64,000 nucleotides of DNA from Escherichia coli (GTDB lineage Bacteria; Pseudomonadota; Gammaproteobacteria; Enterobacterales; Enterobacteriaceae): NCBI RefSeq assembly GCF_030013595.1, contig NZ_CP122768.1, one strand, 5' to 3'. Made by a program: the position numbers and the translations under genes. The notes under the pieces were generated by a model that was not told the origin of the DNA, did not search any database, and saw only the letters and a program-made list of their open reading frames with translations. Below, one piece after another: positions 33,494-59,400 of this stretch (position 1 is the stretch's first letter; each line of letters opens with the position of its first letter).

Positions 33494-34684
33494 TTAAGCT
33501 GCATTCCCTTTCGCTATCGGAGCCAGTGCCGCAGGCAACTCTTTACCCAGCCCTTGCACCAGCGAATCTTGCGTAATTTCGCTAATCGATTTCGCGCCAG
33601 TCAGCGTCATTGCCACTTTCATCTCTTTCTCGATCAGGTTCAGTAGATTGGCCACGCCCGCCTGGCCCGCTGTTGCCAGCGCATACAGGAAAGCACGACC
33701 CAGCAGTACGGTGTCGGCACCGAGCGCAATCATACGCACGACATCAAGCCCGTTACGAATCCCGCTATCCGCCAGAATGGCAATATCACCTTTCACCGCA
33801 TCCGCAATAGCGGGCAATGCACGAGCGGAAGAGAGTACACCGTCCAGCTGGCGGCCACCGTGGTTAGAAACCACAATCCCATCAGCACCAAAACGTACTG
33901 CATCGCGCGCATCTTCCGGATCGAGGATCCCTTTGATCACCATCGGACCATCCCAGAAATCGCGGATCCACTCAAGGTCTTTCCATGAGATGGATGGATC
34001 GAAGTTATTCCCCAACCAGCCGATGTAATCTTCCAGTCCGGTCGGTTTGCCGAGGTAAGCCGAGATATTACCTAAATCATGTGGACGACCGTTCAGGCCC
34101 ACATCCCACGCCCATTGCGGATGCGTCACCGCCTGCAAGTAACGGCGCATTGCCGCATTTGGGCCGCTCATACCCGAGTGTGCATCACGGTAACGCGCGC
34201 CCGGTGTCGGCATATCCACGGTGAAAACCAGCGTCGAGCAGCCTGCCGCTTTTGCTCGCTCCAGCGCGTTACGCATAAAGCCGCGATCGCGCAGCACATA
34301 AAGCTGGAACCACATCGGACGTTTAATGGCTGGAGCGACTTCTTCAATCGGGCAAACGGAAACCGTCGAGAGAGTAAACGGAATGCCATGCGCATCCGCC
34401 GCTTTGGCAGCCTGAACTTCGCCACGACGCGCATACATGCCACACAAACCCACCGGAGCCAGCGCCACCGGCATCGACAATTTCTCATTAAACAGCGTCG
34501 TTTCCAGGCTTAAGTCAGACATGTTTTTCAGAATGCGCTGGCGCAGCGCCACTTCTGACAAATCTTCCACGTTGCGGCGCAGCGTGTATTCAGAATATGC
34601 ACCCCCATCCATATAGTGGAACAGGAACGGCGGCAGAATGCGTTGTGCTGCGGCGCGATAATCGCTGGCTGCGGAAATAATCAT
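33494..34684 (-). CDS. lldD: L-lactate dehydrogenase (FMN-dependent)
   Basis: 396 aa; [38 protein letters not shown]. Confidence 0.95.
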
Positions 34685-35457
34685 GCGTTTTTCTCCCTCG
34701 AATGCTCATTATGGTCACCAGGCAGGCGGGTAATGCGTGCATGGCGAGCTTGATCTTCATCGAATCGTTTCATGGTGGTGTGAACAAAGCTAAGGTGCGC
34801 CATCATTGCTTTACGCGCCCCGTCAGCATCACCGGCAAAAATGGCGTCAATGACTGCCTGATGTTGTTCGGTCAGCTGTGAAAAAACCGGGGGTACCAGA
34901 TACATCCGCTGGCGGCTATGCTTCACAGAGGATTGCAGGACATCGAAGAAACCGCGCATGGTTTGCAGCAGCACGATGTTATGTGAGGCTTCGGCAATCG
35001 CCAGATGAAAACGAACGTCCGCTTGTGAGGCGAGATCCGGGTCTTCACTTAGCGTTGCTTCAAAGCAAAGCTGAATTTTCTCTTTTTCGCCTGGTGTGGC
35101 GCGCATTGCCGCATGCCACGCGGTGCTGGCTTCAATGGCGTAGCGGGCTTCCAGAATATCGAAACTGTAATCCGGATCATCGGCCATCAGCGTTTTCAGC
35201 GGCTGGACGATGTTTTGCTCCGACCATGTGTCATGACGCCAGCGAATAAACGTCCCGCTGCCGCGTCGACTAAGCAGCACGCCTTCGCTCACCAGTTTTG
35301 CCAGCGCCTCGCGCAGTGAATTACGCGATACGCCGAGTTGCATCGCCAGTTGACGTTCAGCGGGCAACTTCATGCCCGCCTCCAGGTTTTTTTCATCAAT
35401 CAGCGCCCGCACACGATCGGCAACCTCGTCTGACAGGCGTCTGAGTAAAACAATCAT
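34681..35457 (-). CDS. lldR: L-lactate operon regulator LldR (GntR/FadR family)
   Basis: ORF 34681..35472; start placed at internal Met ([51 protein letters not shown]); 4-bp overlap with lldD. Confidence 0.9.
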
Positions 35458-48388: not shown

Positions 48389-48604
48389 AGATATTTTCTT
48401 ACGGCGTTCACCTGATGTGATCTGCAGCATGTTATGCCTTCGTCATAAAATCGTTATGTAACTAAGCAACTCATCACCTCTAAAAATTATTCTTTGGTGT
48501 TATGGCGAGAATCGCGAACCCGAATTATTGTCAAAATATCAGCCTGACTCCCTTCTGGCTGCCAGCCAAAAAACAACACCGATAAACGTGAATCCGAGGC
48601 AGAT

Positions 48605-48967
48605 ATGTTTCTAAACTATTTCGCGTTGGGAGTGCTGATCTTCGTCTTTCTGGTGATTTTTTATGGAATCATCGCGATACATGACATCCCTTATCTGATT
48701 GCCAAAAAGCGCAACCATCCCCATGCCGACGCTATTCATACGGCGGGCTGGGTGAGCCTGTTTACTCTACATGTTATCTGGCCGTTCCTGTGGATCTGGG
48801 CGACGCTCTATCAACCGGAGCGCGGCTGGGGCATGCAGTCACATGTTGCGTCGCAAGAGAAAGCGACTGACCCGGAAATCGCCGCACTTTCTGACCGAAT
48901 TTCCCGGCTGGAGCACCAACTCGCCGCCGAGAAAAAGACTGACTATTCCACGTTCCCGGAGATCTAA
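48605..48967 (+). CDS. yibI: DUF3302-type small inner membrane protein YibI
   Basis: 120 aa; [50 protein letters not shown]. Confidence 0.85.
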
Positions 48968-48969
48968 AT

Positions 48970-50106
48970 ATGGATCTATTGATTGTTTTAACTTACGTGG
49001 CGCTGGCGTGGGCGGTCTTTAAAATCTTCCGCATTCCGGTGAATCAGTGGACGCTGGCGACGGCGGCGCTGGGAGGCGTGTTTCTGGTGAGTGGTTTGAT
49101 TTTGTTGATGAACTACAACCACCCTTACACTTTTACCGCGCAAAAGGCAGTGATAGCGATCCCCATCACGCCACAGGTGACGGGAATTGTTACTGAAGTC
49201 ACCGACAAAAATAATCAGCTTATTCAAAAGGGCGAGGTGCTTTTTAAGCTCGACCCGGTTCGTTACCAGGCGCGAGTTGACAGACTTCAGGCTGACCTGA
49301 TGACGGCGACGCATAATATAAAGACGCTGCGCGCGCAGCTCACTGAAGCGCAGGCCAACACCACCCAGGTTTCAGCGGAGCGCGACCGTCTGTTTAAAAA
49401 TTATCAACGTTACCTGAAAGGCAGCCAGGCGGCGGTGAATCCGTTCTCGGAACGTGACATCGACGATGCGCGGCAAAATTTCCTCGCGCAGGACGCGCTG
49501 GTGAAAGGCTCGGTGGCGGAGCAGGCGCAGATCCAGAGCCAGCTCGACAGTATGGTTAACGGCGAGCAGTCGCAGATTGTGAGCTTAAGAGCGCAACTTA
49601 CTGAAGCAAAATATAACCTTGAGCAGACTGTCATTCGCGCACCAAGCAATGGCTACGTTACTCAGGTACTGATCCGCCCAGGTACATACGCAGCTGCCTT
49701 GCCGCTACGTCCGGTGATGGTTTTCATCCCCGAGCAAAAACGGCAAATTGTCGCCCAATTTCGGCAGAACTCGCTGTTACGTCTGAAACCCGGCGATGAT
49801 GCGGAAGTGGTGTTTAACGCGCTACCTGGGCAGGTGTTCCACGGCAAACTGACCAGTATTTTACCTGTCGTGCCAGGCGGTTCGTATCAGGCGCAAGGGG
49901 TATTGCAATCATTAACGGTCGTGCCCGGCACGGACGGTGTGCTGGGAACCATTGAACTGGACCCCAACGATGATATCGATGCCTTACCCGACGGCATCTA
50001 CGCCCAGGTGGCGGTTTACTCCGACCATTTCAGCCATGTTTCGGTGATGCGAAAAGTGCTGCTAAGAATGACCAGCTGGATGCATTATCTTTATTTGGAT
50101 CATTGA
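48970..50106 (+). CDS. yibH: HlyD-family membrane fusion / secretion protein YibH
   Basis: 378 aa; N-terminal TM helix, coiled coil, HlyD-like barrel; 3-bp gap after yibI. Confidence 0.88.
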
Positions 50107-50176
50107 GACTTATATCACCTGTGTTTTGCGTGAGCCTGAGCCATACTGATATTTTTCCTCGCACAAAGGACTCGGC

Positions 50177-50785
50177 ATGAAACTCGTCGGTAGCTACACC
50201 AGCCCGTTTGTACGCAAACTTTCTATTCTGTTGTTAGAAAAGGGCATAACTTTCGAATTTATTAATGAACTGCCCTATAACGCGGACAACGGCGTGGCGC
50301 AATTTAACCCGTTAGGGAAAGTGCCGGTGCTGGTGACCGAAGAGGGCGAATGTTGGTTTGATTCGCCGATCATCGCTGAATATATTGAATTAATGAATGT
50401 CGCTCCGGCGATGTTGCCGCGCGATCCGCTGGAGTCGTTGCGGGTGCGCAAAATTGAGGCGCTGGCGGATGGCATTATGGATGCCGGGCTGGTATCGGTG
50501 CGTGAACAGGCGCGTCCGGCGGCGCAGCAGTCTGAAGATGAATTGTTACGCCAGCGGGAGAAAATCAACCGCAGTCTGGATGTGCTGGAAGGATATCTGG
50601 TCGATGGCACGCTCAAAACCGATACGGTCAATCTGGCGACTATCGCCATTGCCTGTGCCGTCGGATATCTCAATTTCCGCCGCGTTGCGCCAGGCTGGTG
50701 TGTCGACCGCCCACACTTAGTCAAACTGGTCGAAAACCTGTTTAGCCGCGAAAGTTTTGCTCGCACCGAACCGCCAAAGGCTTGA
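50177..50785 (+). CDS. yibF: Glutathione S-transferase homolog YibF
   Basis: 202 aa; [39 protein letters not shown] (thioredoxin-like GST N-domain). Confidence 0.9.
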
Positions 50786-50882
50786 TGCGCGATATGTCCT
50801 CCTGACCCATCTCACGTTACAATCCGTGGTTATGTTAAACGCCCTTCTCCGTGTGAGAGGGCCTTGATCAGCCAGGTTTCCT

Positions 50883-52274
50883 ATGACAACCGAAACGCGT
50901 TCCCTCTATAGTCAACTTCCGGCTATTGATCGCTTATTGCGCGATAGCTCCTTCCTTTCTTTGCGTGATACTTATGGTCACACCCGCGTGGTGGAATTGC
51001 TGCGTCAGATGCTTGACGAAGCGCGAGAAGTGATTCGTGGCAGCCAGACGCTGCCTGCGTGGTGTGAAAACTGGGCGCAAGAAGTCGATGCCCGGTTGAC
51101 GAAAGAGGCGCAGAGCGCGCTGCGTCCGGTGATCAACCTGACGGGAACCGTGCTGCATACCAACCTTGGTCGAGCTTTACAGGCGGAAGCCGCGGTGGAA
51201 GCCGTTGCGCAGGCTATGCGTTCGCCAGTGACCCTCGAGTACGATCTGGACGACGCCGGACGCGGACATCGCGATCGGGCGCTGGCGCAGCTGCTGTGCC
51301 GTATTACGGGGGCGGAAGATGCCTGTATCGTTAATAACAATGCGGCGGCGGTGTTATTGATGTTGGCGGCCACTGCTAGCGGGAAAGAGGTGGTGGTTTC
51401 TCGCGGCGAACTGGTGGAGATTGGCGGCGCGTTTCGTATTCCTGATGTCATGCGTCAGGCAGGCTGCACCCTACACGAAGTAGGGACCACCAACCGCACG
51501 CACGCGAATGATTATCGTCAGGCGGTGAATGAAAATACCGCACTGTTGATGAAAGTACATACCAGTAACTACAGCATTCAGGGATTCACCAAAGCGATAG
51601 ATGAAGCGGAACTGGTGGCGCTCGGCAAAGAACTGGATATTCCCGTGGTGACTGATTTAGGCAGTGGCTCGCTGGTCGATCTTAGCCAGTACGGTTTGCC
51701 GAAAGAGCCAATGCCGCAGGAGTTGATTGCGGCGGGCGTCAGTCTGGTGAGTTTCTCCGGCGACAAGTTGTTAGGCGGGCCGCAGGCAGGGATTATCGTT
51801 GGTAAAAAAGAGATGATCGCCCGCCTGCAAAGCCACCCGCTGAAGCGTGCATTACGCGCGGATAAAATGACCCTCGCGGCGCTGGAAGCCACGTTGCGTC
51901 TTTATTTACACCCTGAAGCTCTGAGTGAAAAATTACCGACCCTGCGCCTGCTTACCCGCAGCGCAGAGGTCATTCAAATCCAGGCACAACGTTTACAGGC
52001 CCCCCTTGCCGCACATTACGGCGCGGAGTTTGCGGTACAGGTTATGCCATGTCTTTCGCAGATTGGCAGTGGTTCGCTGCCGGTTGATCGCCTGCCGAGC
52101 GCGGCATTAACGTTTACACCCCATGATGGACGCGGTAGCCACCTTGAGTCATTAGCCGCCCGCTGGCGTGAATTGCCAGTGCCGGTGATTGGTCGTATTT
52201 ATGACGGACGATTGTGGCTGGATTTACGCTGCCTTGAAAATGAGCAACGGTTTTTGGAGATGTTGTTGAAATGA
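50883..52274 (+). CDS. selA: L-seryl-tRNA(Sec) selenium transferase
   Basis: 463 aa; [44 protein letters not shown]. Confidence 0.95.
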
Positions 52275-57201: not shown

Positions 57202-57237
57202 AGGCAGGCAACGTTAATAGTTGTCTGCCTTTGTTTT
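57202..57237. terminator. Bidirectional hairpin terminator between aldB and the convergent nuclease-like gene
   Basis: aggcaggcaacgttaatagttgtctgcct followed by ttgtttt. Confidence 0.6.
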
Positions 57238-57760
57238 AGTTGTATAAAGCGGCAGTCGCTTTTAACTCATCGCTGAAAGAATAAATATCATCGAGAGATT
57301 CAATAGGATGGCGGGTTTCGTTTTTCTCTAAGTCAAATAAACCAATATATTTTTGATTTCGATTGAAATGTAATCTACAGAGTGGCTTTCGATTATTGTC
57401 ATCTACAAGTATACCAAAATAGCTTTTTGTATCTCTGTGGACTATTCGTGGTGCATCAAGCACTACGCGAACTATAGCTTTAACAATATGAAATCCTTCA
57501 AGTTCCTCCATAGTAGTAGCAATATCGGTTTCTTCTTTATTAATACATTCTACTTCTTCATTGTGTGAATTCGAATCAATTACAGATAATGACCCACCAC
57601 CTATTGCCGATTTCAATCTTTCGTTTATTTGAGAGTTAATATATTGATTGGCAGCTTTCTTTGTTAATTTTGCAAACGTATCTTTTACCTTTTGTGTTAA
57701 CATACCTTCATAAATTCTTGCTGCAAAGAATTTTACAAAATCCTCTTCAGGATTATTCAT
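57236..57760 (-). CDS. Uncharacterized 174-aa ORF, in frame with and 18 nt downstream of the HsdR_N-like ORF (likely its C-terminal half)
   Basis: Same frame as 57779..58315 with one TAA (57779..57781) between: ...GELKYVSLI*KVLHAQMNNPEEDF...; no recognisable RBS before its ATG. Confidence 0.55.
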   Translation of the reverse strand: MNNPEEDFVKFFAARIYEGMLTQKVKDTFAKLTKKAANQYINSQINERLKSAIGGGSLSVIDSNSHNEEVECINKEETDIATTMEELEGFHIVKAIVRVVLDAPRIVHRDTKSYFGILVDDNNRKPLCRLHFNRNQKYIGLFDLEKNETRHPIESLDDIYSFSDELKATAALYN

Positions 57761-57778: not shown

Positions 57779-58315
57779 TTAAATTAAACTAACATATTTT
57801 AATTCACCTGCAGCATTAATTATTGATTCCAAATCAAATGCTGATTTAGTAAGCTTCTTTATCTCGGGAACAACTGTTTCATCTAAGTCAAGTAGATCTA
57901 TCTCAAGAAATGGTTTTTCATCCATTTTATTAGGTGCTTCTAAATCAGTAAAAAATTTATAAACTTGTTCATTGGTTAGAATAGATATTCTTGCATTTGT
58001 TACATGAAAGTATCGAAAAAGCTGTGAAGCATGATTTATATTTAGAGGATCGCCAATTTTTTTGCATTCAATGAGAATCTGAACCTCGCTATTTTTTAAG
58101 ATTGCATAGTCAATCTTTTCACCTTTCTTCGTTCCAATATCGCATACAAACTCTGGGATAACTTCGGTAGGATCAAAGACATCATAACCTAACACATTGT
58201 TAATAAACGGCATTACGAAAGCATTTTTGGTAGCTTCCTCCGTTTCAATGACTCCGGCTTGTTGTTTTATTTTTGCGGATAATGAATTCAGCTTATCTAT
58301 AAACTCCATAGACAT
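57779..58315 (-). CDS. PD-(D/E)xK nuclease-fold protein resembling the N-terminal domain of type I restriction R subunits (HsdR_N-like), N-terminal ORF of 178 aa
   Basis: EEATKNAFVMPFINNVLGYDVFDPTEVIPEF...GEKIDYAIL...VQILIECKKIG (D...E-x-K) ...QLFRYF; strong RBS aaggag 5 nt upstream of ATG; AT-rich. Confidence 0.65.
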   Translation of the reverse strand: MSMEFIDKLNSLSAKIKQQAGVIETEEATKNAFVMPFINNVLGYDVFDPTEVIPEFVCDIGTKKGEKIDYAILKNSEVQILIECKKIGDPLNINHASQLFRYFHVTNARISILTNEQVYKFFTDLEAPNKMDEKPFLEIDLLDLDETVVPEIKKLTKSAFDLESIINAAGELKYVSLI

Positions 58316-58787: not shown

Positions 58788-58973
58788 GTGAAAAGTGCAG
58801 ACGTGATCGCCATCCTGAAGCAGCATGGCTGGGAACATATTCGAACCCGTGGCAGTCATCATCAGTTCCGCCACCCTGTTCATCCGGGTCTGGTGACGGT
58901 TCCGCACCCTAAAAAAGATATTAAGCCCGGTACGCTGGCGCAAATTGGGCGTCAGGCTGGTTTAACATTTTAA
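58788..58973 (+). CDS. hicA: HicA-family mRNA interferase toxin
   Basis: 61 aa from GTG: (M)KSADVIAILKQHGWEHIRTRGSHHQFRHPVHPGLVTVPHPKKDIKPGTLAQIGRQAGL; candidate -10 tataat at 58764..58769. Confidence 0.85.
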   Translation: MKSADVIAILKQHGWEHIRTRGSHHQFRHPVHPGLVTVPHPKKDIKPGTLAQIGRQAGLTF

Positions 58974-58989: not shown

Positions 58990-59400
58990 ATGTTTTATCC
59001 CGCCTATATCCACAGTGATCCTGACGGCAGTGCCAGCGGTTTTTTCCCTGATGTTCCAGGCTGTTATTTTGCTGGTGATACGCTGGACAACGCTTTCCAG
59101 GATGCGCGAAGTGCACTTGTCGCGCACTTCGAAACCTTATGCGAGATGAATGAAGAGTTGCCGCTTCCAGGCTCTGTGGAAACACATCTGGTCCAGCGTG
59201 CGCAGGACTTTATTGGCGGGCAATGGTTGCTGGTGGATATCAATATGAATCAGTTCGAAGGTCGGGCTGAACGTATCAATATTACGATGCCAAAAAGATT
59301 ACTGAACAAGATTGATACCTACGTGCGCAATAACCCAGACTATGCCAACAGAAGTGCGTTTCTGGCGGAAGCTGCCCGGCGTGTATTGCCGGGCGTTTAA
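58990..59400 (+). CDS. hicB: HicB-family antitoxin with C-terminal ribbon-helix-helix domain
   Basis: 136 aa; MFYPAYIHSDPDGSASGFFPDVPGCYFAGDTLDNAFQDARSALVAHFE plus C-terminal RINITMPKRLLNKIDTYV; 16 bp after hicA. Confidence 0.85.
   Translation: MFYPAYIHSDPDGSASGFFPDVPGCYFAGDTLDNAFQDARSALVAHFETLCEMNEELPLPGSVETHLVQRAQDFIGGQWLLVDINMNQFEGRAERINITMPKRLLNKIDTYVRNNPDYANRSAFLAEAARRVLPGV

Follow-up and report, generated by a model that had tools for sequence, protein, structure and literature searches.

In the 64-kb stretch of E. coli DNA analysed in this study (hereafter the window), the interval between yibH and yibF, at positions 50107–50176, is an empty RhsA site, the allele without the element that K-12 carries at this chromosomal position. 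The 70 bp found at this position very probably represent the ancestral spacer, which was never interrupted by an inserted element.

Structure of the yibH–yibF site and comparison with K-12

The yibH gene (48970–50106, plus strand; an ORF of 378 aa encoding an HlyD-family inner-membrane protein) ends with a TGA stop codon at 50104–50106 and forms the flank on the side away from yibF, which is found at 50177–50785 on the plus strand (an ORF of 202 aa encoding a glutathione S-transferase-like protein). The complete spacer lies at 50107–50176 on the plus strand, both by the predicted ORFs and by the sequence itself, so that the separation of only 70 bp given in the initial annotation is correct. 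The two genes are contiguous and intact, with the order and orientation of the genes that flank rhsA in K-12, and the gene order around the site is mtlD–mtlA on the minus strand followed by yibI–yibH–yibF–selA–selB on the plus strand. The gene names and boundaries agree with the RefSeq annotation of the nearest complete RefSeq genome, HCP5S3_I2, which is 100% identical to the window over the 1.8-kb yibH–yibF region and 99.6–99.98% identical, with indels, over the whole window. For positions 34000–46000 of the window, the best match among complete E. coli genomes has an identity of 98.6%, and none of these genomes is identical to the window.

As annotated in K-12 MG1655, the genes rhsA–yibA–yibJ–yibG–yibS–yibW–yibV–yibU are located between yibF and yibH; the order is selB–selA–yibF, then rhsA to yibU on the other strand and then yibH–yibI–mtlA. 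The K-12 map given in the initial annotation, with rhsA, yibA, yibJ and yibG between the two genes, therefore agrees with MG1655, in which yibH and yibF are not adjacent and rhsA through yibU intervene. When the window was aligned with K-12, by BLAST and directly, positions 48500–50107 corresponded to 15243–16850 of the K-12 locus (L001) and positions 50140–50999 corresponded to 6134–6993 of the same locus, so that the correspondence to K-12 stops 1 bp past the yibH stop codon on one side and 37 bp before the yibF start codon on the other. Between these two matches, a segment of 32 bp in the window (50108–50139, plus strand, ACTTATATCACCTGTGTTTTGCGTGAGCCTGA), which is limited to the empty allele, stands opposite 8,249 bp of K-12 (NC_000913, 3761993–3770241), and the break points of this segment are identical to those of the K-12 RhsA element. 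The remaining 37 bp (50140–50176, plus strand) form a block adjoining yibF that is the same as in K-12 up to the junction and is kept in every allele.

The identity to K-12 by BLAST is 98.1% for yibH and its flank and 99.3% for yibF; both flanks are thus common to the two strains at 98–99% identity, whereas no sequence of the element is present in the window. The K-12 RhsA element has a core of 62% GC and a distal part of 38% GC, and is transcribed in the direction opposite to yibH and yibF. A tblastn search of the 64-kb window with K-12 RhsA gave chance hits only (E values of at least 1.3), and a blastn search of the window with the whole 8,249-bp K-12 element gave no match. Of the features of an Rhs element of the RhsA-B-C-F type (clade I), the core, an ORF of about 3.7 kb that is rich in GC and encodes YD/RHS repeats, is absent from the 64-kb window; the variable C-terminal tip, with the immunity gene and the orphan tips downstream of the core, is lacking between yibH and yibF, where 70 bp are too short for any ORF.

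Distribution of the alleles in E. coli

The state of the site was determined in 5,426 complete E. coli genomes. A contiguous empty site was found in 1,521 genomes (28.0%), the K-12-type junction between yibF and Rhs in 3,738 (68.9%) and the K-12-type junction on the yibH side in 3,715 (68.5%), so that about 3,740 of the 5,426 genomes (69%) carry an Rhs element with both K-12 junctions; a third allele, a protease–fimbrial island, accounts for a further 144 genomes (2.7%). The break on the yibF side (query position 102, which is position 50140 of the window) is common to all of the sampled occupied genomes. The length of the occupied site varies, from about 6.5 kb in O157:H7 through 8.3 kb in O26 to 9.5 kb in the APEC strain APEC37, and in these three the tips, immunity genes and orphan fragments differ while the junctions are alike. 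Empty sites include those of O25:H4, Nissle-derived, O102:H6 and O145:H28 strains. The initial annotation had taken the absence of Rhs as the mark of a different lineage, which is right only in the weak sense that the strain is not K-12-like, as the empty allele is common (1,521 of the 5,426 genomes) and occurs in several unrelated groups.

An RhsA-type core is present somewhere in 3,903 of the 5,426 genomes, at a median of six places per genome with any. Strain Z1002, whose yibH–yibF site is empty and has 99.6% identity to the window, carries RhsA-type cores at eight other places; an empty site at this position is therefore uninformative on the remaining Rhs repertoire of a strain.

Rhs core repeats often break short-read assemblies. 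It is nevertheless extremely improbable that the adjacency of yibH and yibF in the window is an assembly artefact, in which a repeated Rhs element was collapsed and the two genes were falsely joined. The cores are indeed 3.7-kb multi-copy repeats, and one contig in the comparison (locus L006) ends just inside the element, but an assembly error of this kind would interrupt the contig or still show some Rhs sequence, and the clean 70-bp spacer of the window is identical to that of the 1,521 complete, mostly long-read genomes and homologous to the spacers of other genera.

Ancestral state of the site

In a scan for YibH covering one genome per bacterial species, 80 loci were obtained, in 62 of which yibF is located downstream of yibH. 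In more than 50 species of Enterobacteriaceae, the genes yibI–yibH–yibF–selA directly follow one another, with a gap of 60–100 bp between yibH and yibF. A spacer of exactly 70 bp that aligns with the window over its full length is present in E. whittamii, in Escherichia sp. E1V33 and in two more genomes of the E. coli group, and a 70-bp spacer alignable over its full length is also present in C. braakii, C. gillenii and other Citrobacter. No deletion scar is seen in the spacer of the window, which aligns from end to end with these other Escherichia and Citrobacter spacers. The 32 bp of the window can themselves be aligned with the spacers of Citrobacter and Raoultella, with a score that was reached by three of 1000 shuffled sequences.

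An exact match of at least 28 nt to the 32 bp was found at 436 places in 435 genomes, at the yibH end of the site among the matches listed; these 435 genomes with an exact match compare with the 1,521 genomes with an empty site. The 32-bp segment was not found in Rhs-bearing genomes among the matches listed and, because of this, a deletion of RhsA cannot regenerate it. The contiguity of the genes in the outgroups, the alignable 32 bp and the lack of this segment in occupied genomes together argue that the empty allele is the original backbone. On these comparisons, the empty yibH–yibF allele is best regarded as the ancestral spacer rather than as a deletion scar, and the Rhs allele as the product of an insertion plus a loss of 32 bp.

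The opposite course of events, in which an ancestor of the strain carried RhsA and the site was emptied secondarily, either by deletion or by homologous replacement from a strain with the empty allele, is considered improbable. With flanks that are 98–99% identical between the alleles, recombination would be feasible; the empty allele is present in several unrelated serotype groups, as would result from allele exchange, and widespread loss of rhs loci has been described (Jackson et al., 2009; PMC2935791). A simple deletion is countered by the 32 bp, as described above, and by the full-length, scarless spacer that aligns with those of the outgroups. The sole remaining route is recombinational replacement, the product of which would still be the ancestral allele, and a site emptied in this way would look identical to one that had never been occupied.

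Sequence features of the spacer

In Enterobacter, Leclercia, Pseudescherichia and some Citrobacter, the spacer opens with an intact yibH terminator hairpin and T-run (GGCAGGTG...CACCTGCC-TTTT), whereas the E. coli spacer, within 50108–50139, retains the 3′ half and T-run of this hairpin alone (CACCTGTGTTTT). On the yibF side, a CATACT box is located at 50142–50147, 35 nt before the yibF ATG, and the motif CATA[CA]T is found 31–37 nt upstream of the yibF ATG in 55 of the 62 loci, from many genera. A Shine–Dalgarno-like AAGGA is located at 50166–50170. The block adjoining yibF, which contains both motifs, is kept in all of the alleles examined, namely the empty allele, the Rhs allele, the protease–fimbrial island and those with the cargo of other genera, and may be regarded as the putative core promoter and leader of yibF. 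A sigma-70 consensus scan and a terminator search of the 70-bp spacer found nothing, Rfam gave no RNA family within the spacer and, in the surrounding part of the window, no RNA gene, and the predicted RNA folding of the spacer is no better than that of shuffled sequences (z = +0.98).

In the empty allele, the genes yibI–yibH–yibF–selA–selB are co-oriented. Because no recognisable terminator lies between yibH and yibF in this co-oriented run, read-through into yibF–selAB appears possible. This arrangement is unlike that in K-12, in which 8 kb of oppositely oriented genes are located between yibH and yibF.

Third allele and cargo in other genera

The third E. coli allele is represented by SCU-176 (NZ_CP054345.1; locus L005, 664–11092), in which a 10.4-kb island containing an S6-family protease autotransporter, a chaperone–usher fimbrial cluster and an HTH regulator occupies the site. 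The YibF and YibH proteins of SCU-176 are identical to those of the window, and the spacer next to yibF is about 78% identical to that of the window, so that the island allele retains a diverged copy of the spacer beside yibF. In Citrobacter youngae ATCC 29220, the same spacer (locus L023, 2104–10593) holds a gene for a 1,373-aa Rhs protein in the orientation of rhsA, with a core that is 68% identical to RhsA at the protein level and a different tip, followed by an orphan tip fragment. The cargo in Pseudocitrobacter faecalis (locus L074, 11138–17098) is a cassette of PAAR, VgrG and a LysM-domain protein, and that in Citrobacter sp. MGH106 (locus L012, 11138–18322) and Klebsiella spallanzanii (locus L058, 4196–12030) is a cluster of PTS, sulfatase and radical-SAM maturase genes. 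Beside the yibF block, spacer-derived sequence that is significant against shuffled sequences is found in the C. youngae, SCU-176 and Pseudocitrobacter alleles; its retention shows that the insertions in the three alleles took place close to the yibH stop codon and terminator.

The right end of the K-12-type element is present in Escherichia sp. MOD1-EC7003. A G-rich run is observed directly after the yibH stop codon, as TGA-GGGGGAGGGGGGAG in the K-12 Rhs allele and in MOD1-EC7003 and as TGA-GGGGGAAGGGGC in SCU-176 (15229–15242 of the K-12 locus, L001; about 11080–11091 of the SCU-176 locus, L005; and 11138–11152 of L006), and is absent from the empty allele. The common G-rich run hints that one island may have replaced the other inside a shared right junction.

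With such different cargo in one spacer, it is conceivable, although only tentatively held, that the interval between the yibH stop codon or terminator and the putative yibF promoter block is a cross-genera hot spot which has repeatedly captured contact-dependent weapon cassettes and surface-factor islands. If so, the empty allele of the window would be a standing 'landing pad', still kept by about 28% of E. coli. The more specific proposal of a true insertion hot spot, in which cargo has entered independently several times at a target preferred for its sequence or its structure, for example the terminator hairpin of yibH, is rather doubtful. It agrees with the distinct cargo in the same spacer (the 144-genome E. 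coli island, C. youngae, Pseudocitrobacter faecalis and MGH106/K. spallanzanii) and with the observation that all of these cargo alleles keep the block adjoining yibF, with spacer-derived sequence beside it in three of them. On the other hand, five to seven types of cargo in about 60 species could reflect the mere tolerance of a non-essential spacer to insertion, and the junctions of the K-12 element, as described below, also weigh against it.

Formation of the Rhs allele

At the K-12 junctions, neither a target-site duplication nor terminal inverted repeats were found, and the 32 bp are replaced rather than duplicated in the K-12 allele. No direct repeats that could serve as an att site are present at the junctions; shared 10-mers occur only at least 45 bp inside the element, and the count of shared 7-mers is near that expected by chance. 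In the annotation of the K-12 element, there is no gene for an integrase, recombinase or transposase and no tRNA gene. The lack of a duplication, of inverted repeats and of such genes argues against an insertion hot spot, as does the single junction pair of the Rhs allele within E. coli, by which no repeated Rhs insertion is seen. The description of the site as an empty Rhs target in the initial annotation accordingly holds in that the site is unoccupied and free of a scar, but not in the sense of a mechanistic target, for which the missing duplication, the missing integrase and the one junction pair provide no indication.

Since essentially all of the occupied E. coli genomes share one junction pair, a single acquisition is favoured. 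As judged from the junction sequences, the data fit one historical acquisition, followed by vertical descent and by allele exchange through the 98–99% identical flanks, rather than repeated targeting. Very probably, in one event in the lineage leading to K-12, an Rhs cassette of about 8 kb was placed between the yibH stop codon and the conserved block, with the loss of the first 32 bp of the spacer. The cassette, which is transcribed in the direction opposite to yibH and yibF, comprises a core gene rich in GC, a toxin tip that varies, immunity genes and orphan tips. The occupied E. coli strains then very probably inherited or exchanged the same junction pair, while their arrays of toxin tips diversified. 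RhsA is found at this position in K-12 and in most E. coli of groups A and B1 and of the O157 type. Strains of the type of the window would have the empty allele by descent, or may have recovered it when the conserved flanks recombined with those of another strain. As the Rhs gene of C. youngae is found in the same spacer and in the same orientation, it is also possible that the occupied allele is an old, horizontally exchanged one that did not originate inside E. coli.

Two further candidate similarities within the K-12 element were considered and rejected. The yibF end of the element was compared with the ancestral 32 bp as a possible diverged copy, which would indicate that the element was imported together with a foreign spacer by recombination in the flanks. 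By eye, CTGCCCTTTTTCCC is like the terminator half CCTGCCTTTT, but the similarity was reached by 32% of shuffled sequences and, in a second test, by 170 of 1000, and the idea was dropped. The 10-mers TTTATTTGGA and TTATATCACC, from the yibH end and spacer of the window, recur in reversed order in the yibF-proximal part of the K-12 element and were taken to be chance AT-rich words.

Other variable regions of the window

Several other places in the window also differ between strains. Between lldP and yibL, where K-12 has nothing, the window contains genes on the minus strand for a 1,587-aa YadA-like trimeric autotransporter adhesin (37410–42173) and a SadB/YajI-family lipoprotein (42217–42900); the repeat region of the adhesin, at about 40068–40790, differs in length from that of the nearest complete genome. 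Between aldB and a GH127 glycoside hydrolase gene, the segment 57236–59400 contains a type I restriction endonuclease-like gene together with hicA (58788–58973) and hicB (58990–59400). The restriction gene is split into two ORFs on the minus strand in the window (57236–57760 and 57779–58315) and is a single CDS in the nearest genome. At the same place, O157:H7, O26 and APEC37 carry yiaW–yiaV–yiaU–yiaT, which makes this a second replacement polymorphism in the window.

The spacer between mtlD and mtlA (46061–46154) is variable in length among strains, with 94 bp in the window, 229 bp in K-12 and 419 bp in SCU-176. Between rpmG and mutM, at about 5700–5740, the window is without the IS200/IS605 tnpA insertion that is carried by HCP5S3_I2. 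In the waa cluster, a family-8 glycosyltransferase gene (14555–15583) is intact in the window and has an internal stop codon in HCP5S3_I2. A JUMPstart RNA element (RF01707, 51 bits; 8726–8764, plus strand) is located at the expected position upstream of the waaQ (rfaQ) LPS-core operon.

Relation to the known Rhs polymorphism

In conclusion, this study describes a strain that is not K-12-like at the yibH–yibF locus and carries the backbone state of a well known variable Rhs position. The observation of the empty site is correct and ordinary, and the presence or absence of RhsA at this position is an established polymorphism, to which this study makes small and incremental additions: a large census, a third allele and the description of cargo at the site in other genera. 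The census provides current frequencies for a polymorphism that was earlier known from far fewer strains, and the site offers a convenient typing marker for E. coli with three alleles: empty, Rhs and protease–fimbrial island. The T6SS-linked toxins among the cargo of other genera could be of interest with regard to the movement of polymorphic-toxin islands.

An RhsA-negative allele of the rhsA locus, termed 'Rhs0', is said to have been described by the laboratory of C. W. Hill, by Feulner and colleagues in 1990 (J Bacteriol 172:446) and by Hill and colleagues in 1995 (Genetics 141:15). The 1990 work reportedly compared an 8,249-bp RhsA element with 32 bp in a strain lacking RhsA, and the polymorphism is said to have been described there for the first time, in a handful of strains. 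When the window is compared with this allele, the chromosomal position and the sizes (8,249 bp versus 32 bp) are the same and nothing substantive differs.

The site also corresponds to rhs position 10 of Jackson, Thomas, Parkhill & Thomson (2009) (BMC Genomics 10:584; PMC2935791), which is delimited by the same pair of genes, yibF and yibH, the window representing its 'absent' state. In that study of 20 E. coli and Shigella strains, an rhs element was scored at position 10 in many of them and was lacking in others, and its origin was placed within E. coli, at a time when one group of pathogenic strains had already split off (PMC2935791). The genes b3592–b3596 are likewise given as an Rhs region by Archer et al. 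(2011; PMC3032704), and papers from the Hill laboratory are cited by both Jackson et al. (2009; PMC2935791) and Archer et al. (2011; PMC3032704). Whereas 20 genomes were scored by Jackson et al. (2009), the present census covers 5,426 complete genomes, and the protease–fimbrial island of E. coli and the cargo-bearing alleles of other genera are added to it. The differing tips at common junctions observed here agree with the picture of tip displacement presented by Jackson et al. (2009; PMC2935791).
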